A stretch of DNA of 40,000 bases, from assembly GCF_013782625.1 (NCBI RefSeq), contig NZ_CP056199.1:288588-328587 (forward strand), written 5' to 3'. Position 1 is the first letter of the stretch, and each line of letters begins with the position of its first letter. Origin of the DNA: Enterobacter sp. RHBSTW-00994 (GTDB taxonomy: Bacteria; Pseudomonadota; Gammaproteobacteria; Enterobacterales; Enterobacteriaceae). The position numbers and the translations under genes were made by a program. Positions 310 to 31,222 of this stretch are shown here, piece by piece. Under the pieces are notes generated by a model, which worked only from the letters and a program-made list of their open reading frames with translations, was not told the DNA's origin and ran no database searches.

Positions 310-340
310 GCATCCAACAGACGTGATGGCTGTTGGATGC
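310..340. terminator. stem-loop between convergent alr and the hydrolase gene
   Basis: gcatccaacag (310-320) pairs with ctgttggatgc (330-340), an 11-bp perfect stem with a 9-nt loop. A T5 run lies about 10 nt downstream. Confidence 0.5.
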
Positions 341-352
341 TATGCCGACTTT

Positions 353-1486
353 TTATGGTTTCAGCACATCATAAATAGCCTGATGGGTTAAATAGTCCGA
401 GGCCAGTCCTGATTCCGGTATGAAAGTATTTCCCCGCAGAGTCGAGAAAGGCACGCCGGTGCTGCCTGAAGAGACATAGCGTTCACCTTTATCATTCTCG
501 GAAACGGTATAGACGCTCTTTTGCATTTGCATAAACAGCGCGGCTTTGCGTTGGATCGACTGGTGCAACTCCAGCAGTTGTACGCCATCCAGACTGAGTT
601 TTTTATCCATATTCACTCCCCATCTTTGCAGGCAAACTTCTGCAAAATGACGCACGATCATCCCCGGTTCGTGCAGGAGCTTCTCGCCTTTGTCTCCGTT
701 TGCAGATGCATTTCCGACGAGTGTGGCGTGTCGCCCTGCCATAGGGTAAATATGCACCTGGGTCACTTTGTCTGTTTTCGGAATAACGCAGGAGAAACCT
801 TTTGAGCGCTCATCTTTAGCATAGAATGCAACATATTCTCTGACGTTACTGCCTAAGGTCACTTTCTCTGTCTGAAAATTACCTGTTCCCGGAACCGGAT
901 CAACTGCAAAAATATTGACCGGGATGGTGGTCAGAACAGGATCGGCAAGCATGGCATTGGCGAGCATGTGGCAGCTAATGCCACCCCGACTCCATCCCAC
1001 TAAGTTGACCTGTGTTGGCAGAATCTGTCCTTTTCGGAAGGTTTTAATAATCTGCTGCTGAAGTTCCTGTTGGGTGACTTTTCGATCGCCATAATCATAT
1101 TTTCGCCACCAGAAGGAACCTGTTACTTCAACATCTTCAATGGGAATACCTGCTTTTTTCAACTGAGCGTAATTTTCTTTGGTCAGTTTTTCACGCTGCC
1201 AGTCAATATGTCCTTTCATAATATTGAGAGCATGCTGAACATTCTCTTTCCAGCCACTTCCAAGGAGTTGCCCTCGCAGTTGAGAGTAATCACCACTTTT
1301 AACCCATAACTCGTCGCTTTGCAGGTTACCACTTCCTGGACCATCAAGAATAACCCATTCCGCAAACTCTTTTCCTTTGTTATTCGCCGCCAGCATTGAA
1401 ATCAATTCGCCATTCCAATAATTATCATGTGAATCATCAAATTTATTAGAGCCTGTACCACAGAAATACACTGTTAATGTTGTCAT
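353..1486 (-). CDS. alpha/beta-hydrolase, DUF2235 / T6SS Tle1-like lipase family (orphan)
   Basis: The N-terminal LTVYFCGTGSN resembles the DUF2235 'FDGTxN' motif. The nucleophile elbow G-W-S-R-G (LVGWSRGG) resembles 'GFSRGA'. A later VDPVPGTG Asp and AGRHATLVG His fit a Ser-Asp-His triad. I prefer the second ATG (1486) because GAGG lies 6 nt upstream. There is no signal peptide. Confidence 0.55.
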   Translation of the reverse strand: MTTLTVYFCGTGSNKFDDSHDNYWNGELISMLAANNKGKEFAEWVILDGPGSGNLQSDELWVKSGDYSQLRGQLLGSGWKENVQHALNIMKGHIDWQREKLTKENYAQLKKAGIPIEDVEVTGSFWWRKYDYGDRKVTQQELQQQIIKTFRKGQILPTQVNLVGWSRGGISCHMLANAMLADPVLTTIPVNIFAVDPVPGTGNFQTEKVTLGSNVREYVAFYAKDERSKGFSCVIPKTDKVTQVHIYPMAGRHATLVGNASANGDKGEKLLHEPGMIVRHFAEVCLQRWGVNMDKKLSLDGVQLLELHQSIQRKAALFMQMQKSVYTVSENDKGERYVSSGSTGVPFSTLRGNTFIPESGLASDYLTHQAIYDVLKP

Positions 1487-1790
1487 AGCAAACCTCATTT
1501 AAATATTAATATGTAAAGGGAAGGCACATGTGCGTTTGAATAATAAGCATGAAAAACGCATGATAAAATAGACCGATAAGCCTAGGTTATTGTTCGTATG
1601 ATCAATGACTGTATATAGTTAATTAGAGCTATATTTTTTGTTAAGTGCAGCTTAAATATTTAAACAGGAATATGACAATTGCCTTATGCCAAATGCAGTT
1701 TTTAAAGTTTGAAAATACCACCCATACTCATTTCGGAAAAGGTTGATTGAATAATCTAAGGAAGACGAAATTACATGAGGTCAAATCGCA

Positions 1791-2396
1791 ATGAATATAT
1801 TGATGATCGATGAATTACCGATCTACATTCACGGTATGAAGACTGAACTGAAGAGAGTGATGCCGGAGTGTACCGTGTTTGCTACAAACAGCATTGAAGA
1901 TGCACAATCAATTTTGTCATCAAGGCAAATCAGTATTGTTTTGTTGGATGGAGAAATAAAATGCAGTGATTTTATAAATATACTGACGTCGGAGCGGCCA
2001 GCATTGCCCATTGTGGTTATGTTGAGAAAAACGACGGAGAGAATATTTAATTTTTATATTAGGCAGAATGTAAAAGGTATCTTCACCAAAGATCTCTCTG
2101 TGGAGAAGATCAGCCAAATATTGACGATGGTGGCATCTGGTGTGGTCTGTTTTCCTGAGCAGGCAGTCGTACACCGTGAGCAACCCACCTTTGCTGCCCC
2201 CATTCACTCACTAAGCCAGCGTCAGCAAGAGGTGTTGCATCTTCTGGCGAATGGAGGGACTAATAAGCAAATCAGTCGGCAGTTGAATATCAGCGCGGGG
2301 ACGGTAAAGGTTCATCTTGAATCTATTTTTCACCGTCTCCAGGTTAACAACCGCACACAAGCCGCGATGATCTATTTTAAATATATTGCTAATTAG
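1791..2396 (+). CDS. NarL/FixJ (LuxR-type HTH) response-regulator-like protein, atypical receiver, no partner kinase
   Basis: The C-terminal LSQRQQEVLHLLANGGTNKQISRQLNISAGTVKVHLESIFHRLQV is a LuxR/GerE HTH. The N-terminal receiver-like fold keeps Asp in VLLDGE and Lys in GIFTK, but the acidic pair is DE and the conserved Thr/Ser position reads MLR. No histidine kinase gene is in the window. Confidence 0.75.
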   Translation: MNILMIDELPIYIHGMKTELKRVMPECTVFATNSIEDAQSILSSRQISIVLLDGEIKCSDFINILTSERPALPIVVMLRKTTERIFNFYIRQNVKGIFTKDLSVEKISQILTMVASGVVCFPEQAVVHREQPTFAAPIHSLSQRQQEVLHLLANGGTNKQISRQLNISAGTVKVHLESIFHRLQVNNRTQAAMIYFKYIAN

Positions 2397-2442
2397 ATAT
2401 TGTTTACGAAATTTTATTATGGCGTCGCAGTACGCATTAATT

Positions 2443-2474
2443 AAAGCGCAACAAGCAGTATTGTGTTGCGCTTT
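2443..2474. terminator. bidirectional terminator between the convergent LuxR gene and the membrane-protein gene
   Basis: aaagcgcaaca (2443-2453) pairs with tgttgcgcttt (2464-2474), an 11-bp perfect stem with a 10-nt loop. A/T runs lie on both sides. Confidence 0.7.
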
Positions 2475-2481
2475 AAACATG

Positions 2482-2772
2482 CTATTTATATTTTGCTTGA
2501 AAGTAATAAATCACAACAACCAGCGTTCCAAAATCCTGCAGTAGCCAGAAAGGAAAACTGTCACTCAGAATATCAGCCCCCGTTAAAATGAATTTTATGT
2601 TCAAACTGCTTTCACCAAAAAAACCAAACGCCAGTGCGGCTATGCCGACTTTACTCATTACGGGTAAAGCATGAACTCTACGACTATACGCTGCAAAGAG
2701 GATAAGAAATGATGTGGTAAGATCGACAGCAATAATAAAATACAGAAGCCAACCATTCATGATGTTAGGCAT
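2482..2772 (-). CDS. small 3-TM inner-membrane protein (possible second holin, antiholin or immunity component)
   Basis: The 96-aa protein has three hydrophobic segments (about 7-28, 41-60, 72-92). Its ATG lies 1 nt after the stop of the upstream holin-like gene. I recognise no homolog. Confidence 0.5.
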   Translation of the reverse strand: MPNIMNGWLLYFIIAVDLTTSFLILFAAYSRRVHALPVMSKVGIAALAFGFFGESSLNIKFILTGADILSDSFPFWLLQDFGTLVVVIYYFQAKYK

Positions 2773-2773
2773 G

Positions 2774-3181
2774 CTACTCTCCGTCTATTTTATTGTCATT
2801 TAACTGTGGCGAAGGGATAGACTCATTTCTGACTTTTCTTCTAATGACGCTGGCAACATCGAAAATATCGCGTTGTTCATTGCGTCGAAAGAAATTGGCC
2901 AGCCAGACAATCAAACCGTTGCTGAGTGCGCCCAATATATATCCCAGTCCTAGGGTAATATCGGCCTGATTGAGATCGATTTTTAGCCAGCGGGCAGATA
3001 GCCCTCCAAGGGCTACTGCTGCTCCCATACTGATACCACCAAATATAATGCCAGCCATAAACCGGCTATGCTGGTGTAATCGTTGAGGCTGCCAGAAAAA
3101 AGAGATACTCACACCACCAAATAAACCTGAAAAAGCCAGTAATGCTTCACTTATCAGTGTCGGAAGATAGATAGCAGACAT
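2774..3181 (-). CDS. holin-like membrane protein (3 TM plus highly charged C-terminal tail)
   Basis: The 135-aa protein has three Gly-rich TM segments (about 5-29, 40-62, 75-96). A charged tail FFRRNEQRDIFDVASVIRRKVRNES... follows them. This is the architecture of class I holins. The call rests on architecture and the lysozyme neighbourhood, not on homology. Confidence 0.45.
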   Translation of the reverse strand: MSAIYLPTLISEALLAFSGLFGGVSISFFWQPQRLHQHSRFMAGIIFGGISMGAAVALGGLSARWLKIDLNQADITLGLGYILGALSNGLIVWLANFFRRNEQRDIFDVASVIRRKVRNESIPSPQLNDNKIDGE

Positions 3182-3202
3182 GAAATTATCCTCAGCAAGA
3201 AT

Positions 3203-3231
3203 AAAGTCCCCTTAACTAAGAAGGGGACTTT
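3203..3231 (-). terminator. intra-cluster hairpin (possible attenuator or partial terminator) between the barnase-like and holin-like genes
   Basis: aaagtcccctt (3203-3213) pairs with aaggggacttt (3221-3231), an 11-bp perfect stem with a 7-nt loop. On the transcribed (minus) strand it is followed by attcttgc, which is only a weak U-tract. Confidence 0.45.
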
Positions 3232-3251
3232 ATCACCGTTACATAGACTCG

Positions 3252-3734
3252 TTATTGGCAAGGCGCTAACTCAACCAGGTGTTGATAATTATCGGTAGTG
3301 ATATACCGCTGCTGCCCAGAAAAACTATAAATCACGTGCTTAGGGCTGCGATGGCCTTTGGCAACATCAATATCTGCGCTCAGCCAGGTCTGAGGTGTAG
3401 GCAGAGATGGATGGCTATAACGATCGCCGCCAATCCACTTTTTATTGGTCGGTTTTAACCCCCAAAGTGACTCTGAATCTTTACCAGACCAGCCAAGCCT
3501 TTTGGCTTCTTCCGTCGTGATATAGCGATCCGGCAAGCGGCCAAAATTTTTAATCGTGCGAAGTGTAGTGGCAAGATCCGTGATGTCATTAACGGGAACT
3601 GCGCCTTGCCCGGTTAAAAAAGTATTCGTTTCCTTAATTTCTTCTTCGCAGGTTTTGAGTGCCGCATGGACTTGCAGCGTGGCGGACAGAGTGATGAGTG
3701 CGAGAGCCATCTTCAGTGAAAACATTGTGTTCAT
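3252..3734 (-). CDS. secreted barnase-fold (microbial RNase N1/T1/barnase family) protein with substituted catalytic residues
   Basis: The N-terminus is a signal peptide (MNTMFSLKMALALITLSATLQVHA/AL). The mature part aligns with barnase as I remember it: LPDRYITTEEAKRLGW vs LPDNYITKSEAQALGW; IGGD vs IGGD; TWLSADID vs TWREADIN; GHRSPKHVIYS vs GFRNSDRILYS; ITTDNYQ vs KTTDHYQ. A GAGGAAA SD lies upstream. Confidence 0.7.
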   Translation of the reverse strand: MNTMFSLKMALALITLSATLQVHAALKTCEEEIKETNTFLTGQGAVPVNDITDLATTLRTIKNFGRLPDRYITTEEAKRLGWSGKDSESLWGLKPTNKKWIGGDRYSHPSLPTPQTWLSADIDVAKGHRSPKHVIYSFSGQQRYITTDNYQHLVELAPCQ

Positions 3735-3750
3735 CGGAGTTTCCTCTCAC

Positions 3751-4203
3751 TTAGCTAAGAAATAATTTCATTTCGGCTTCACGGCGTCTTGTGAGTCCCG
3801 CCAGCACTTTACCGCCTGCTTTATTCCAGCTTTTGAATTGCAATGCCGCGCCTTCCATATCGCCGGAATTAAATTTCTTTAAGAGTGTCGATTTTTTTAA
3901 GTTCCCGACCCCCAGGTTGAACGCAAATGAGATCAATGCATCGAACTGGTTCTGCGTTGCAGAATGCGTCAGGAGTCTTTTCACCCCATCTTCCGTGCGC
4001 TTCAGGTCGTTCCGCAGGATGCTTTTGGCTTCTCCGGTGGTGATTTTTGTCAGTTTTTCCATCTCCTCTTTTAAAATCAAATGACCGTAACCAATGGTCC
4101 ATAAACCTACGGCATCGCGATAACGTTCCAGCTTGAGTCCTTCAAACTGGCAAATAAGCTGCACACCTTTTTCGCCTGTACTTCCAGGTTGTTTTTGCAT
4201 CAT
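3751..4203 (-). CDS. glycoside hydrolase family 24 lysozyme (phage-type endolysin), cytoplasmic form
   Basis: LICQFEGLKLERYRDAVGLWTIGYGH carries the T4/P22-type Glu...Asp...Thr catalytic context. NQFDALISFAFNLG and KAGGKVLAGLTRRREAE are typical GH24 blocks. There is no signal peptide or SAR helix. The start overlaps the upstream stop (ATGA at 4200-4203). Confidence 0.85.
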   Translation of the reverse strand: MMQKQPGSTGEKGVQLICQFEGLKLERYRDAVGLWTIGYGHLILKEEMEKLTKITTGEAKSILRNDLKRTEDGVKRLLTHSATQNQFDALISFAFNLGVGNLKKSTLLKKFNSGDMEGAALQFKSWNKAGGKVLAGLTRRREAEMKLFLS

Positions 4204-4805
4204 CGAGTCTCCTCTGCTTTTGGACGGGGGATCACTTTATTGGTGTATTCGTCTATCAAACGCATCACGCTCTCAGGTGGCTCCAGAGCGGTGAATTGCA
4301 TTTCCACATCGACATGCCTGCTGTCACGGCCCCCTTTGTTATCGCTGGCTGGCGAGAGGCTGACATGAAAGCGGCCAAATTCGTTTTCTCCCGATTGCCG
4401 GGAGGGCGCCTGCATACCTTCTGTACGTATCGTCAGGTTCACTTTCATCTTTTCCAGCATCAGTCCGCGTGGAGTAGACAGGGCGACTAAAGGCAGATCG
4501 AAATAGTGGTTTTCATCCAGAGCCAGTTGTACGGTACGCGGTATCAGTGAACCGTCATCTGCAGGTTCGAAGAAAGGATCCAGCGCTTTCATATATTGCT
4601 GAGCAATTAACTCGTTCGCAGCCGTTGCCGCGTACTGCATTCCACGCGTAATGTCCTCAAGCGTGACCGGCAGGCCGGGAATATCTGCTGGAGGCGACGG
4701 TGGATTATTTCCCTGTACCGGAGGCGATGTTCCTGCAGCCTCTTTCTCCGTCTTGTTTTCCGGTTCTTCATCCTTGTCGCCGCGTAGCCATTTTTTAAAA
4801 GACAT
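4200..4805 (-). CDS. unknown protein B, paralog of protein A (possibly DUF2589-like)
   Basis: I chose the start at the MSFKKW ATG (4805) because AGGAG lies 7 nt upstream. The first ~45 aa are acidic and Pro-rich and look disordered. The protein shares with protein A the blocks (I/L)PL(L/V)A(A/L)..P and (D/E)PPE(A/S).(Q/M)R(V/L)ID(Y/E)(L/Y)TN. Confidence 0.6.
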   Translation of the reverse strand: MSFKKWLRGDKDEEPENKTEKEAAGTSPPVQGNNPPSPPADIPGLPVTLEDITRGMQYAATAANELIAQQYMKALDPFFEPADDGSLIPRTVQLALDENHYFDLPLVALSTPRGLMLEKMKVNLTIRTEGMQAPSRQSGENEFGRFHVSLSPASDNKGGRDSRHVDVEMQFTALEPPESVMRLIDEYTNKVIPRPKAEETR

Positions 4806-4880
4806 AATTCGCTCCTGAAAGGAGGCCACCGGTGGCGGCCCCTGTGTGACGGAATAGCAATACACTCACGGCGCGAAGCG

Positions 4881-5438
4881 TTACTGCGCAGCGACAGGCT
4901 TGGTTTTGGCGTTGGTTAAGTAATCGATAACGCGTTGCAGGGCTTCAGGGGGGTCCTGGCGCTTAATCTGCGTATGGATGGAGTATTTGGCGCGTGTATC
5001 AGTCGAACGGGTTTGCTCGGATTTATGTGAGACTTTGCCGGTCATTTTGGCTTTGAAAATCCCCCAGCCAATGGAGGCTTCCACGGACGCTTCGGTGTCG
5101 GTACTGCTTGAGCTGGCCTCGCTCTGGCTCACCTCCAGCTCGAAGTCGATCGTACCCTCTTCGATGCAAATAATCGGATGAGCAATGGCAGCCAGCAGCG
5201 GAATGCTCATTTTGCGGGTGACGCTGCCTTTGCTTACCCCTTGCTCATCCACCAACGTTTCGTCGTAATCAAACTCGATTGCAACAGCTTTTCCGTCCTT
5301 GATACAAACGGAAAGCAGGAAATCGGTATAGGATTTGCTGGCCTGTACCTGAGCTTTGATCATGGCCTGCAGTGGGCCGCCAATCATATGTTCAAGTGGA
5401 AGGGCGTTGATAACTGAACCAATAAATTGTGAATCCAT
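4881..5438 (-). CDS. unknown protein A (possibly DUF2589-like), first gene of the minus-strand cluster
   Basis: A strong AAGGAG SD lies 8 nt upstream. The N-terminal LPLEHMIGGPLQAMIKAQVQASKSYTDFL resembles what I recall of the DUF2589 family, which is unverified. The centre holds a Ser/Thr/Glu-rich stretch (SQSEASSSSTDTEASVEAS). It is followed by an amphipathic segment, IGWGIFKAKMTGKVS. Confidence 0.6.
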   Translation of the reverse strand: MDSQFIGSVINALPLEHMIGGPLQAMIKAQVQASKSYTDFLLSVCIKDGKAVAIEFDYDETLVDEQGVSKGSVTRKMSIPLLAAIAHPIICIEEGTIDFELEVSQSEASSSSTDTEASVEASIGWGIFKAKMTGKVSHKSEQTRSTDTRAKYSIHTQIKRQDPPEALQRVIDYLTNAKTKPVAAQ

Positions 5439-5645
5439 AATGTGAACTCCTTGAATCAGTGAATGCGCGGTTGCGCAGGAGTCACATTACGGCACTGAAA
5501 ATGTGCGGGGTATTTGGCAAATATCCCATCTGGTAGACACAAAGAACCTATGTCATCTGCGGGATAGGGGGGAAAGAGTGGTGTTACGTCATATTCCGGT
5601 TTATTGTTGAAATCCCTGCCTCATCGATTTCCGGAGAACCATCGC

Positions 5646-7057: not shown

Positions 7058-7771
7058 ATGCGCAAGATCACACTGGCGCTCAGCGCCGCCTGCTTATTGT
7101 TCTCGCTTAATAGTGCAGTCGTTGCGCGCGCCTCCGCACCGACGCCGCTTTACACCGGAACCACCGCCGCCATTCTTGCCGAACAAGCCCCCATTCACTG
7201 GGTTTCCGTGGCTCAAATTGAAAATAGCCTGATGGGGCGTCCACCCATGGCGGTCGGTTTTGATATCGACGATACGGTCTTGTTTTCCAGCCCTGGCTTC
7301 TGGCGTGGTAAAAAAACCTACTCACCTGACAGCGAAGCTTATCTGAAGAACCCGGAGTTCTGGGAAAAGATGAACAACGGCTGGGATGAGTTCAGTATCC
7401 CGAAAGAGGTGGCCCGCTCACTGATTGCCATGCACGTGAAACGTGGTGACAGCATCTATTTTGTTACGGGACGTAGCCAGACCAAAACTGAAACGGTTTC
7501 CAAAACGTTGCAGGATGATTTTCTGATCCCGGCAGTCAACATGAATCCGGTAATTTTTGCCGGTGATAAAGCCGGGCAAAATACCAAGACGCAGTGGCTG
7601 GAACAGAAAAATATCAAAGTATTCTACGGTGATTCTGATAACGACATCACGGCAGCCCGCGATATTGGGGCCAGAGGTATTCGGGTATTACGCGCCTCTA
7701 ACTCGACCTATCGACCATTGCCGATGGCAGGTGCGTTTGGTGAAGAGGTGATCGTTAATTCGGAATACTAG
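7058..7771 (+). CDS. aphA: class B acid phosphatase / phosphotransferase
   Basis: The protein has a signal peptide. It also carries the DDDD-family motifs [12 protein letters not shown] and YGDSDNDI. The length is 237 aa and the position is syntenic. Confidence 0.92.
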
Positions 7772-7886
7772 GCGTGCTGTTTTTTTGAACAAATCTGGTC
7801 TGCCGGGTTTACCTTTTGTCGTCTTGCTGCACACTTAAAAGGGCAGATACTCAGGTCGCGTTCAACCCATTTACAGGGGAGCAAAG

Positions 7887-30953: not shown

Positions 30954-30959
30954 CCCAAA

Positions 30960-30992
30960 AAACTAAAGCGCCAAACCAAGGCGCTTTAGTTT
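30960..30992. terminator. soxR terminator (bidirectional-looking)
   Basis: aaactaaagcgcc (30960-30972) pairs with ggcgctttagttt (30980-30992), a 13-bp perfect stem. An A-run precedes it and a T-run follows. Confidence 0.75.
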
Positions 30993-31222
30993 ATTCCCGG
31001 TCTTTGTCTTTCTCTCTATCCCGCTGGTTCACGGGAGGGTTTTCCCCCGACATCAGCACCCCTCATGTCGAGCTGGTTGAGGAGGTTCCGGTTTGTGCTG
31101 ACACTTTAATTCTATGCATAACCTTTTTTTTTGCCAGTTGTGATGACTGTTTTTTAGCCAAATTTTTTTCGTGATGTTGTTCGATTTTCTATAGTTAATA
31201 AGTATGAAAACAGGAGAACACG

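Follow-up and report, generated by a model that had tools for sequence, protein, structure and literature searches.

A gene islet between alr and tyrB

The window (the whole 40-kb stretch of Enterobacter DNA that we analysed) carries eight open reading frames (ORFs) between alr and tyrB, all of them intact and all confirmed in the ORF list as a preliminary description had placed them (Table 1). In E. coli, tyrB either directly adjoins alr or is parted from it only by an AAA-ATPase gene and pnuC, and the islet is missing from all 5,426 genomes of that species; alr and tyrB of the window are themselves only about 78% identical to their E. coli counterparts, so the window is not from E. coli. The AT-rich stretch described earlier is real, with a GC content of 0.31-0.40 over about 1350-2850 versus 0.50-0.60 in alr/tyrB and 0.51-0.55 in the genes for proteins A and B. 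We could also read directly in the sequence the alr hairpin (about 310-340), an AAGGAG motif that precedes the start codon of A by 8 nt, an ATGA overlap shared by the B stop and the lysozyme start (4200-4203), the 1-nt gap that separates the holin-like gene from the second membrane-protein gene downstream of it, and the hairpin that follows the barnase-like gene. The mechanical ORF of B reaches a GTG at 4865, and its homologues begin at the ATG. The islet is flanked by housekeeping genes and no defence genes. As originally stated, no integrase, virion or T6SS genes were seen in the window, and nothing elsewhere in it resembled a prophage, a judgement based solely on ORF sizes and an Rfam scan. 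No spanin or outer-membrane component was seen among its ORFs.

Table 1. Features of the alr-tyrB interval, in window coordinates.
Feature	Position	Strand	Basis
Alpha/beta hydrolase P1 (predicted), 381 aa	353-1498	-	ORF
NarL/FixJ-type transcription factor (predicted), 201 aa	1791-2396	+	ORF, GerE helix-turn-helix
Second small membrane protein, 96 aa	2482-2772	-	ORF, hydropathy scan
Holin-like membrane protein, 135 aa	2774-3181	-	ORF, hydropathy scan
Hairpin in the interval between the barnase-like and holin-like genes	3205-3235	-	Read in sequence
Barnase-fold protein (predicted secreted), 160 aa	3252-3734	-	ORF, barnase similarity
GH24 (T4/P22-type) lysozyme, 150 aa	3751-4203	-	PF00959
DUF2589 protein B, 201 aa from ATG	4200-4805	-	PF11655
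DUF2589 protein A, 185 aa	4881-5438	-	PF11655
Perfect palindrome TGCGC-N4-GCGCA, candidate operator	5464-5477	strand-neutral	Unique in window

Predicted products of the accessory genes, lysozyme and regulator

The lysozyme matched PF00959 (E 1e-46) and a PHROG endolysin (E 7e-55), and its Glu21/Asp30/Thr36 triad, as read from the sequence, is intact with the spacing of T4 lysozyme. We detected neither a signal peptide nor a SAR segment in this protein, which agrees with the earlier description of a signal-less GH24 enzyme, and we consider it an apparently active muramidase. It has 1,484 phage relatives, the best phage endolysins being at most 54% identical, and it is taken as translationally coupled to B, whose stop codon overlaps its start codon.

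The barnase-like protein resembles barnase chains in the PDB (E 6e-11) and carries an N-terminal signal peptide, while Glu73, His102 and Arg87 are replaced by Ser, Asn and His, respectively. Glu73 and His102 are replaced in all 34 of 34 homologues, nearly all of which start with an N-terminus that is hydrophobic and signal-like by eye. These features point to a secreted, catalytically dead barnase homologue and bear out the proposal of a degenerate secreted protein. A terminator-like scan match (3225-3208) lies inside the hairpin beyond this gene, which may be a partial terminator or attenuator within the operon.

Each of the two small membrane proteins, initially assigned three transmembrane segments, has two clear hydrophobic segments in a hydropathy scan and a weaker third that was read by eye. 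The holin-like protein has a charged C-terminal tail, its Pectobacterium homologue is 43% identical, and two of its homologues bear the UniRef label 'Holin'; a protein of Enterobacter sp. RHBSTW-00994 is 100% identical to it. It found no counterpart among the Pfam or PHROG holin families or in 50,697 phage genomes, and the holin call is one of topology alone. The second membrane protein is a candidate partner or antiholin of the holin-like protein.

The regulator matched GerE (E 3e-21), whereas its receiver domain scored 24.9 bits against Response_reg, below the Pfam cut-off of 30.2 bits, and it is NarL/MadR-like at E 1e-19, far under the equivalog cut-offs. It is a response regulator of the NarL/FixJ type whose receiver domain is atypical. 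The original LuxR-type designation fits its GerE helix-turn-helix (HTH), but the protein is not an autoinducer-binding LuxR. The gene is convergent with the operon and has no adjacent kinase gene. A palindrome 25-38 nt upstream of the start codon of A (TGCGC-N4-GCGCA; one occurrence in the window versus 0.1 expected by chance) is a candidate operator, and its position is conserved in Enterobacter and Scandinavium loci.

P1 had been described as a DUF2235/Tle1-like lipase and a member of the islet. At the sequence level this assignment failed, with no Pfam match; at the fold level it held, since Foldseek matched P1 to 4m0m (E 9e-11) and to the Tle1 structures 4o5p (E 8e-6) and 6sjl_E (E 2e-3). 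With its GWSRGG nucleophile elbow, P1 is predicted to be an alpha/beta hydrolase with a Tle1-like catalytic fold. Only 3 of the 66 loci compared below carry P1, and its Proteus homologue stands alone beside flagellar genes. P1 is an unrelated passenger outside the conserved module.

A and B are members of the DUF2589 family

The two proteins that the preliminary description could not place both exceed the Pfam cut-off (23 bits) for DUF2589 (PF11655), a family of 1,079 representative clusters: A scored 91 bits (E 1e-25) and B 47 bits (E 5e-12). B is a distant paralogue of A, and pairwise similarity between them is limited to a 43-residue local match. We found no experiment or paper in the literature on DUF2589 function.

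Protein A, the most conserved component of the locus, has no signal peptide and no transmembrane segment. It is 96% identical to A of Enterobacter soli and 67-96% identical across Enterobacterales, Burkholderiales, Pseudomonas, Ochrobactrum and Desulfobulbia. Its AF2 model (pLDDT 80) has an alpha/beta core and a long beta-hairpin with a low-confidence, amphipathic tip centred around G124-W125-G126. Across 83 DUF2589 representatives of at most 50% mutual identity, residues 115-123 and 128-136 alternate strictly between hydrophobic and polar around a nearly invariant Gly-Trp-Gly turn (lag-2 autocorrelation of hydrophobicity, 0.92 and 0.68, respectively), and the flanks of the hairpin are Ser/Thr-rich and polar. 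The hairpin is followed by a polar, nearly invariant strand (SHKSEQTRSTDTRAKY). A has no PDB relative by sequence, and the Foldseek search proposed at the outset gave none that was significant by fold, all matches having E values above 0.1 and TM-scores no higher than about 0.2. These non-significant matches were to pore and ring formers with hairpins, among them parasporin-2, lysenin, aerolysin, the iota Ib pore and the FliF ring, with weak matches also to phage lower collar proteins and a Microcystis extracellular tube.

Protein B consists of an N-terminal aromatic/polybasic peptide (MSFKKWLRG), a Pro-rich disordered linker and the DUF2589 domain, and both the N-terminal motif and the disordered linker are kept across classes. 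More distant members of the family carry long coiled-coil extensions.

The conserved unit comprises a regulator, A, B and a wall hydrolase

We compared 66 species-level loci with enough flanking sequence. B follows A in all 66, a signal-less GH24 lysozyme adjoins A-B in 59, and a GerE/LuxR-type regulator (26-80% identity) adjoins A in 57. The accessory genes are less frequent: the holin-like gene occurs in 30 loci and is missing from 36, the barnase homologue occurs in 27, and the second membrane protein follows the holin-like gene in 19. The lowest identity within these loci was 67% for A, 35% for B, 49% for the lysozyme and 26% for the regulator. Thus the evolutionary unit is the regulator, DUF2589 A, DUF2589 B and a wall hydrolase, and the idea that the genes co-occur stands for these four (57-66 of 66 loci) but not for the eight-gene islet as a whole. 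Enterobacterales have gained the holin-like pair and the barnase-like gene as lineage-specific extras, and Ralstonia too has the barnase-like gene. Placement between alr and tyrB is syntenic across four genera; the DUF2589 family is patchy and horizontally spread.

Elsewhere the wall enzyme and the regulator are exchanged. DUF2589 pairs lie beside GH19 (locus L055; E 2e-10) and, in Aquipseudomonas, beside a pesticin-type lysozyme (E 9e-48). A peptidase M23, STAS and SpoIIE/HATPase adjoin the pair in L094; GH24, STAS and SpoIIE/HATPase do so in a branch (L097) that is only about 35-38% identical; and L052 has a LytTR regulator and a protein with a weak match to a peptidoglycan-binding domain (E 4e-4). 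The constraint on A is independent of which hydrolase is present, and replacement of the regulator by LytTR or STAS/SpoIIE is as expected for a dangerous function that needs gating. Pairs in Pseudomonas alkylphenolica, Glaciecola and Desulfurivibrio have no nearby hydrolase, and one pair lies beside a deaminase-like toxin domain. The family also occurs in Archaeoglobus, an archaeon without murein (PMC3949148), so wall hydrolysis is not intrinsic to DUF2589. Archaeal members form clusters of several paralogues (PMC3949148).

The holin-like gene is absent from every Burkholderia, Paraburkholderia, Trinickia and Ochrobactrum locus and from the distant, low-GC STAS branch. Operons of Burkholderia, Ochrobactrum and the STAS branch encode no membrane protein, and their hydrolases have no signal peptide. 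Because most lineages with A, B and lysozyme lack the holin-like gene, a plain holin/hydrolase (type 10) system, as first suggested, cannot explain the core.

Neither A nor the holin-like protein matched any of the 50,697 phage genomes, which supports the original view that the cassette is not of phage. Among the islet proteins, PADLOC models matched only the generic HTH of the regulator, and PHROGs only the lysozyme and the regulator HTH. The core combination recurs across very distant bacteria and, as initially supposed, matches no described lysis or secretion system.

A tentative model of gated autolysis or release

What we tentatively favour, at somewhat less than an even chance, is a chromosomal module for autolysis or release that a transcription factor gates and whose DUF2589 pair opens a way through the inner membrane for the lysozyme. 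The observed basis of this reading is gene content, conservation, linkage, lack of export signals and a non-phage context. In this model, the atypical NarL/FixJ-type regulator would turn on the operon, with the palindrome in front of A as the candidate operator. B would then anchor at the cytoplasmic face of the inner membrane by its N-terminal peptide and pair with A, and A would oligomerise and insert its amphipathic hairpin to form a beta-barrel-type lesion, a step suggested by the sequence pattern and the model. Such a lesion would substitute for a holin, acting in the manner of bacterial gasdermins, which attack the membrane from inside. The lysozyme could then reach and cut the murein, and the cell would lyse or leak its contents. 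The holin-like, second membrane and periplasmic dead barnase-fold proteins added in the Enterobacter lineage would probably tune timing or limit damage.

In support of gated autolysis or release we count the linkage in 66, 59 and 57 of the 66 loci, the swapped wall enzymes and regulators, and the holin-less operons of most lineages. We also count the gene order: in phage lysis cassettes holins lie upstream of the endolysin, and here A-B takes that position, with the ATGA overlap. The constraint on A, its hairpin pattern and model, the non-significant fold matches to pore formers and the N-terminus of B point the same way. Against this reading, the lack of significance of those fold matches counts, the hairpin might just as well form an amphipathic sheet between subunits of a soluble assembly, and the nearly invariant polar strand after it suggests a specific binding surface rather than lipid contact. 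Only a large oligomer could form a pore that passes the folded 17-kDa lysozyme, the holin-like gene of the 30 Enterobacterales loci would be redundant if A/B already opened the membrane, and the hydrolase-less pairs and Archaeoglobus members also count against it.

Alternative explanations

The main rival, unlikely in our judgement yet deserving serious weight, is type 10-like secretion or lysis-release with A and B as cargo, a signal-less binary beta-hairpin toxin or extracellular assembly freed through the holin-like protein and lysozyme. The operon of the window brings the three type 10 ingredients close together, in keeping with the published definition (PMC10109510): a membrane protein of holin type, a muramidase that lacks a signal and neighbouring proteins that lack one too. 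A release module would likewise be compatible with the exchange of hydrolase families and the tight regulation, an amphipathic hairpin with Ser/Thr-rich flanks is also seen in the secreted aerolysin-type toxins among the weak fold matches, and toxin release through lysis of a subpopulation is documented in Yersinia entomophaga (PMC10847048). However, the lysozyme would have no exit in the 36 loci without the holin-like gene, whose product matches no holin family, and no spanin or outer-membrane component was seen in the window. An offensive toxin would not usually be 67-96% identical across classes, as A is, and the basic N-terminal peptide of B resembles an intracellular membrane tether. We regard it as improbable that A and B instead build a ring or tube-like multi-subunit structure, envelope-spanning or released, for which the hydrolase only clears a path, as flagella and secretion machines use dedicated lytic enzymes to get through murein. 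Self-assembling structural proteins are typically as extremely conserved as A is, and this explanation draws also on the weak matches to long-hairpin ring formers (FliF S-ring, phage lower collar, Microcystis tube), the coiled-coil extensions and the archaeal multi-paralogue clusters (PMC3949148). Those fold matches are not significant, however, the pair comes with no export signal, ATPase, membrane platform or outer-membrane component, and a soluble T4-type endolysin without an anchoring or interaction domain would be odd for local wall remodelling.

Phage infection rather than a physiological signal could set off killing by A/B and lysozyme, but there is little likelihood of such an abortive-infection module. 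Gated self-lysis fits its logic, the alr-tyrB gap is an insertion hotspot (AAA-ATPase and pnuC in E. coli), the family is patchy and horizontally spread, and hydrolase-less pairs exist, one of them beside the deaminase-like domain. Yet only the generic HTH matches PADLOC models, the neighbours are housekeeping rather than defence genes, synteny in four genera is steadier than in typical defence islands, and GerE, LytTR and STAS/SpoIIE are ordinary signal-transduction regulators, not phage sensors; a few viral contigs also carry A-B themselves. Least probable by far is that a prophage lysis cassette has decayed here and has no function today. The phage relatives of the lysozyme and five IMG/VR contigs with A-B, one with the pair directly upstream of a portal gene, would suit such an origin, but the absence of A and the holin-like protein from phage genomes, the intact ORFs and the lack of integrase or virion genes by ORF size and Rfam scan do not. 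Strong constraint across classes and a fixed site in four genera already contradict it, and we conclude that the cassette is not a phage remnant.

An eight-gene islet between alr and tyrB

All eight open reading frames (ORFs) placed between alr and tyrB by the preliminary description were recovered from the ORF list of the window at the positions listed below. GC content is 0.31-0.40 across ~1350-2850, compared with 0.51-0.55 in the genes for A and B and 0.50-0.60 in alr and tyrB.

Positions of islet genes, signals and one unrelated RNA gene in the window
Feature	Position (strand)	Size or placement	Remark
alr hairpin	~310-340		read in sequence
P1, alpha/beta hydrolase	353-1498 (-)	381 aa	
GerE-type regulator	1791-2396 (+)		
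Second membrane protein	2482-2772 (-)	96 aa	
Spacing of the two small membrane-protein genes		single base	read in sequence
Holin-like protein	2774-3181 (-)	135 aa	
Hairpin 3' of barnase-like gene	3205-3235		read in sequence
Barnase-like protein	3252-3734 (-)	160 aa	
GH24 lysozyme	3751-4203 (-)	150 aa	
ATGA, overlap of B stop and lysozyme start	4200-4203	four bases	read in sequence
B, distant DUF2589 paralogue	4200-4805 (-)	201 aa	
A-B gap		75 nt	read in sequence
A, DUF2589 protein	4881-5438 (-)	185 aa	
AAGGAG, strong		8 nt 5' of A start codon	read in sequence
Perfect palindrome TGCGC-N4-GCGCA	5464-5477	25-38 nt 5' of A start codon	candidate operator
Near-palindrome TATTTGGCAAATA	5511-5523	~40 nt upstream of TGCGC-N4-GCGCA	candidate operator, conserved in part
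sraL	30959-31102 (-)		Rfam RF01408, 156 bits

The window derives from an Enterobacter-like organism; its 135-aa membrane protein has a 100% identical counterpart in Enterobacter sp. RHBSTW-00994, and A is 96% identical to A of Enterobacter soli. The window alr and tyrB genes are just ~78% identical to those of E. coli, and the islet was found in none of 5,426 complete E. coli genomes, where alr and tyrB are either contiguous or separated by other genes. The block lies at alr-tyrB in Enterobacter, Scandinavium, Kluyvera and Pseudescherichia and at a different site in other genera, and insertions appear to have recurred at the alr-tyrB intergenic site, a probable hotspot; an AAA-family ATPase gene plus pnuC occupies it in many E. 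coli strains. Outside the islet the window is ordinary-looking chromosome as far as ORF sizes and an Rfam scan show, with aphA, putative yjbR and uvrA genes (assigned from the gene order of Scandinavium) and then sraL, an Hfq-binding sRNA that is an ordinary chromosomal feature unrelated to the islet.

A and B are DUF2589 proteins

Both A (91.1 bits) and B (46.9 bits) scored above the gathering threshold of 23 bits for the Pfam family DUF2589 (PF11655). BLASTP aligned the two over 43 residues only, around a shared PPE(A/S)(L/V)xR(V/L)ID helix, and from their sequences we regard them as very old paralogues. Literature searches for DUF2589, PF11655 and IPR024510 returned nothing beyond two incidental transcriptome mentions, and the accession numbers appeared nowhere. 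PADLOC, PHROGs and NCBIfam gave no match for A, B, the two membrane proteins, the barnase-like protein or P1.

There were no matches among PDB sequences for A alone or for a profile of 83 family members. We used AF2 to model A from 83 diverse family members (mean pLDDT 80.5). Helices are predicted at the N-terminus (a long one) and at the C-terminus, together with a small sheet and a very long hairpin at residues 94-159, the distal part of which (111-142) is of low confidence. A Foldseek search of the PDB with this model gave no significant fold (best E-value 0.25). The weak tail of that search consisted mostly of long-hairpin pore or ring builders (parasporin-2, lysenin, aerolysin, iota toxin Ib, the FliF ring and phage lower collar proteins), which we treat as a lead only. 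The model also resembles two uncharacterised viral proteins.

Across the 83 diverse family members, mean hydrophobicity strictly alternates at residues 115-123 and 128-136, astride a nearly invariant Gly-Trp-Gly turn (lag-2 autocorrelation 0.92 and 0.68, lag-1 autocorrelation -0.61 and -0.79 for the two strands), and the flanks are polar and rich in Ser/Thr. The same type of alternation, built from other residues, recurs in branches of 30-38% identity. Such alternation is the pattern of a membrane-spanning beta-hairpin with about nine residues per strand, and an inter-subunit sheet would also fit; the family alignment and the AF2 model together predict that the amphipathic hairpin is long enough to span a membrane. 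Window A stops directly after its C-terminal helix (KPVAAQ), and in the alignment of A orthologues (A2) most homologues beyond the closest Enterobacter relatives continue for another 10-50 disordered, Pro/Ala-rich residues.

B has no counterpart of the amphipathic hairpin tip of A. Its N-terminus is aromatic and polybasic in every lineage (for instance MSFKKWLRG, MFRLFKRRR, MGKLFAKKNK and MSWLREWWEGK) and leads into a disordered linker whose length varies widely, between about ten and more than 100 residues. The composition of this N-terminal peptide suggests that it may tether B to the anionic inner face of the membrane.

Linkage of islet genes across genomes

We collected the loci around A orthologues from 80 species-representative genomes and from the contigs of the protein collection, and mapped all eight window proteins onto them. 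For Burkholderia, gene content was taken from the gene calls of the collection, as a simple ORF caller yielded spurious genes in high-GC genomes.

Occurrence of islet components in the 66 loci with at least 4.5 kb on each side of A, counts being biased to A orthologues at least 67% identical because the 80-locus set was found via the closer alignment A2
Component	Loci	Identity to window protein
A	66/66	67-95%
B	66/66	35-91%
GH24 lysozyme	59/66	49-89%
GerE-type regulator	57/66	26-80%
Holin-like protein	30/66	43-90%
Barnase-like protein	27/66	28-68%
Second membrane protein	19/66	27-83%
P1 hydrolase	3/66	68-85%

Of the co-occurrence anticipated in the preliminary description, that of A, B and the lysozyme was borne out and that of the barnase-like gene in part, and P1 was rarely present. 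The full seven-gene arrangement is present in Enterobacter, Scandinavium, Kosakonia, Ewingella, Rahnella and Leminorella; Kluyvera has the seven-gene set minus only a detectable regulator, and Kalamiella has it minus only the second membrane protein. A four-gene core of regulator, A, B and lysozyme occurs throughout Burkholderia, Paraburkholderia, Trinickia and Ralstonia and also in Ochrobactrum. A is more conserved than any other protein of the module: across the same operons, A is 67-96% identical and the regulator is down to 26%.

Pseudomonas alkylphenolica, Glaciecola and Desulfurivibrio carry A-B pairs with no hydrolase nearby, and in Archaeoglobus the family is represented by a cluster of short genes (PMC3949148). 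These hydrolase-free pairs and archaeal family members indicate that the pair must be able to act alone.

Several loci depart from the common arrangement. In Pectobacterium (L004, L028-L036 and L040), A forms the edge of an NRPS/PKS cluster, an NRPS gene separates it from the regulator, B, lysozyme and holin-like genes, and the barnase-like gene is missing; this rearrangement is kept in at least nine species. A second GH24 lysozyme copy lies directly upstream of A in some Kosakonia loci (L019, L024 and L027; ~7350-7850), and another follows the regulator in Leminorella (L031, 13290-13727). A contig labelled Methanococcoides alaskense (L080, 7980-11019) encodes a B and a bacterial-type A that is 69% identical, and two genes for MgtE-like membrane proteins come next; this archaeal pair reflects either horizontal transfer or contamination. 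The 16-kb Francisella hispaniensis plasmid pFSC454 (L100) has two response-regulator genes, each near DUF2589 genes or fragments, and no annotated hydrolase. Downstream of the lysozyme in Burkholderia ubonensis (L006, 12180-15955), we read from the sequences a secreted esterase-like protein with an SGLSSGG motif, a possibly phasin-like protein and three tandem 205-aa paralogues, with a Pfam match recorded for none of them; these proteins could be cargo or unrelated. In L093 (2392-3030), a small ORF and a protein weakly matching an XOO_2897-type deaminase, a toxin domain, come after a distant DUF2589 pair.

The DUF2589 pair is retained when the wall hydrolase changes

The 150-aa protein of the window is a GH24 enzyme (Phage_lysozyme, PF00959; 158.5 bits, E 1e-46) whose translation contains a Glu21/Asp30/Thr36 catalytic triad with T4-lysozyme spacing. 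Its N-terminus is not hydrophobic, and the enzyme belongs with the soluble P22/T4-type endolysins. Among its 1,484 phage relatives, none is more than 54% identical.

At more distant loci, DUF2589 proteins accompany other wall hydrolases. In the branch represented by L097, where the A-like protein is ~38% identical, the gene order is lysozyme, DUF2589, small ORF, DUF2589, small ORF, STAS and a Cache/HAMP/SpoIIE/HATPase sensor. A relative of this branch, L094, has two DUF2589 genes followed by STAS and peptidase M23 genes. A proteobacterial metagenome-assembled genome combines A and B with a GH19 enzyme (E 2e-10), and a pesticin-type lysozyme (E 9e-48) adjoins A-B in Aquipseudomonas. A and B of a Melioribacteraceae genome are accompanied by a LytTR regulator, a membrane protein of five segments and a protein that weakly matches a peptidoglycan-binding domain (E 4e-4). 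No signal peptide was found in the hydrolases of these distant DUF2589 loci, and no membrane protein in the STAS-branch operons. DUF2589 pairs are found with signal-less hydrolases of at least four clearly matched families, across bacterial classes, and the link between DUF2589 and wall hydrolysis predates the lysozyme.

As both hydrolase and regulator are swapped while the DUF2589 pair stays constant, we conclude that these genes form a functional module with the pair as its fixed part. The constraint on A is exceptional and independent of hydrolase type, which argues against A being a hydrolase-specific chaperone or inhibitor. The L097/L094 branch is regulated by partner switching (STAS plus SpoIIE/HATPase sensor) rather than by a DNA-binding regulator; both of its paralogues carry long coiled-coil C-terminal extensions, and its small soluble ORFs are conserved (L097, 5292-12309; L094, 328-4155).

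The regulator and its candidate operators

The regulator has a clear GerE helix-turn-helix (HTH) and a receiver-like N-terminus that scored 24.9 bits against the 30.2-bit cut-off for Response_reg. No autoinducer-binding domain was found, with matches to SdiA and PA1136-type models covering the HTH only, and no kinase gene adjoins the regulator gene; a NarL/FixJ response regulator would combine a GerE HTH, a receiver domain and a partner kinase. The protein had been described as an orphan LuxR-type regulator; we rejected the idea that it is an AHL-type LuxR quorum-sensing receptor, as its N-terminus is weakly Response_reg-like and without an autoinducer-binding domain.

The perfect palindrome upstream of A occurs once in the window, where 0.1 occurrences are expected by chance, and its position is kept in Enterobacter and Scandinavium. 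By sequence and position, this element and the near-palindrome beyond it are candidate operators for the adjacent regulator. A simple promoter scan upstream of A gave nothing convincing.

Accessory proteins of the islet

The 135-aa protein has a holin-like topology, with two clear hydrophobic segments, one weaker segment and a charged tail, but searches of Pfam and PHROGs linked it to no holin family. Operons of most lineages are without any holin candidate.

The 160-aa protein had been proposed to be a degenerate secreted protein with a barnase fold, and our analysis agrees: it has a signal peptide, and residues 61-154 (~95 aa) are homologous to barnase (E 6e-11), with no match in Pfam. Barnase and binase share homology and secretion with it, whereas it has lost the general base (Glu73 replaced by Ser) and the general acid (His102 replaced by Asn). 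Both residues are replaced in 34/34 homologues, nearly all of which, by eye, start with a hydrophobic, signal-like N-terminus; Arg83, Asp54 and Tyr103 of barnase are kept in the window protein. From these sequences, we judge the protein to be a repurposed fold rather than a decaying gene. An RNase toxin with a barstar-type immunity protein was considered and rejected, as the catalytic residues are lost family-wide; no barstar-like gene is present in the islet. The barnase-like gene always lies downstream of the lysozyme gene. One might speculate that the periplasmic barnase-fold protein inhibits the lysozyme or has a ligand-binding role, and in Enterobacterales it might act with the holin-like pair to time or confine damage. 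A secreted barnase homologue that is inactivated throughout its family is a further curiosity of the islet in its own right.

P1 had been read as a Tle1-like, DUF2235-family lipase. It matched no Pfam model, DUF2235 included, even at E 10, and a P1 family profile searched against PDB sequences found Legionella lpg2422 (4m0m) only, not Tle1. An AF2 model (pLDDT 67, good in the catalytic half only) gave Foldseek matches to 4m0m (E 9e-11) and, with probabilities of at least 0.98, to Tle1 (4o5p, E 8e-6; 6sjl_E, E 2e-3). The predicted fold and a GxSxG elbow are thus common to P1 and Tle1, while P1 is half the size of Tle1 and membership of the DUF2235 family is not borne out. In the alignment of the P1 family (A4), which has no Pfam model, conservation is 60-70% from Enterobacter to Proteus, Photorhabdus and Pseudomonas; the elbow (GWSRGG), Asp200 and His257/His284 are invariant, and a CGTGS motif is N-terminal. 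The family is common in Proteus, Photorhabdus, Yersinia, Serratia and Pseudomonas, and the Proteus copy stands alone beside flagellar genes. P1 is a passenger. For this reason, and because ORF sizes, the sole basis used here, revealed no T6SS genes in the window, we rejected a T6SS effector island; by the same view of the window no VgrG, PAAR or immunity gene was noticed, and none lies beside the Proteus homologue.

Phage, plasmid and defence context

Neither A nor the holin-like protein had a tblastn match among 50,697 phage genome records, and on this basis we rejected a prophage remnant. Judged by ORF sizes only, the window contains no evident phage genes, and alr and tyrB flank the islet; no spanin candidate was seen in or between the operon genes in a list of ORFs of at least 50 aa. 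A occurred in only 5 of 2.9 million IMG/VR contigs: three matches are Kosakonia-type loci close to where the DNA extracted for predicted proviruses ends, one is an A-B pair directly upstream of a portal gene, and one lies in a 179-kb viral contig. A-B pairs are rare on plasmids (5/72,556 records, 0 mobilisable). No islet component matched a PADLOC 2.0 defence model except the regulator HTH, which hit generic CARF/CasR HTH models.

Comparison with known systems and a possible mechanism

Regulated self-lysis and lysis-like secretion underlie toxin release, extracellular DNA and biofilm formation, vesicle production and phage defence. To our knowledge, every described version depends on a holin. 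Regulated wall hydrolases outside phages are already known; novel in the present case are the partner proteins conserved with the hydrolase, the lack of a holin in the majority of lineages, and a secreted barnase that is catalytically dead.

The module resembles several known systems in part. Like phage holin-endolysin(-spanin) cassettes, it places a membrane-permeabilising candidate before a soluble GH24 endolysin (P22/T4 type) whose start codon overlaps the preceding stop codon, but it lies in a non-prophage context and has its own response-regulator-type switch, and no spanin candidate was seen. CidAB and LrgAB are chromosomal, polytopic, holin-like membrane proteins under LytSR that control murein hydrolases and programmed lysis. 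The DUF2589 module is likewise chromosomal, under response-regulator control and linked to a murein hydrolase, and one DUF2589 locus lies beside a LytTR regulator; however, DUF2589 proteins have no transmembrane helix and zero sequence relationship to Cid/Lrg. As in bacterial gasdermins, which act from the cytoplasmic side, and aerolysin-type toxins, A is predicted to combine a soluble protein with an amphipathic beta-hairpin of ~2 x 9 residues, Ser/Thr-rich flanks and aromatic turn residues. In contrast to them, A is much smaller (185 aa), forms an obligate pair with a paralogue, lacks a protease or other known activation, and has no significant similarity to them in sequence or fold.

The reading that fits most of the evidence, and which we put forward tentatively, is a gated module for autolysis or release. 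Building on the observed gene content, linkage, conservation, missing export signals and non-phage context, we propose that the regulator would activate the operon and that B would dock on the membrane and pair with A. A would then oligomerise and insert its hairpin, whereupon the translationally coupled lysozyme could reach the murein.

The main rival, which we consider unlikely but not negligible, is that the islet follows type 10 logic with A and B as cargo. By definition, such systems encode a holin, a wall hydrolase and their cargo in proximity (PMC10109510), and on paper the window has a holin-like gene, a wall hydrolase and cargo candidates, as A and B are signal-less and adjoin the hydrolase. 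The islet shares with Serratia ChiWXYZ, Salmonella TtsA and STM0015/16, and the Yersinia entomophaga lysis cassette a non-prophage site, a neighbouring dedicated transcription factor and a signal-less murein hydrolase, and the window shares with them a small holin-like membrane protein and signal-less neighbour proteins. However, the partners of the hydrolase in the DUF2589 module are two soluble proteins rather than a holin, and the holin-like gene is missing from 36/66 loci, including whole lineages in which A, B and the lysozyme are kept. Nor is there a recognisable large enzyme or toxin as cargo: among the eight islet proteins, no chitinase, Tc toxin or typhoid-toxin-like gene was identified.

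A role in abortive infection, a regulated self-lysis that would serve phage defence, is in our estimate improbable, given that the generic HTH matches of the regulator were the sole PADLOC hits. Equally improbable to us is a structural assembly that requires a gap in the wall, which could draw on the ring builders in the fold search and on the inter-subunit sheet that the A hairpin would allow. A dead prophage remnant appears most improbable of all; the phage relatives of the lysozyme and the few provirus-associated copies of A stand on its side, and the phage-record searches and the conserved linkage across lineages stand against it.

Extending the gated autolysis or release module, a more general possibility, which we find doubtful though worth stating, is that DUF2589 pairs constitute a widespread new class of soluble protein, whose beta-hairpin pore would open the cytoplasmic membrane from within. 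They would substitute for holins in releasing signal-less wall hydrolases, under transcriptional or partner-switching control. If true, this would amount to holin-independent programmed lysis or release from Enterobacterales to Burkholderiales, Bacteroidota-like lineages and, in hydrolase-free form, archaea. A membrane-breaching pair would be categorically new and a new route for folded proteins out of the cytoplasm, and would assign a function to DUF2589, a Pfam family with 1,079 representative clusters; if the pair is cargo, the islet would encode a new binary effector plus its release system. With four genes in Ochrobactrum and Burkholderia, the module is compact, easily transplanted and directly testable.
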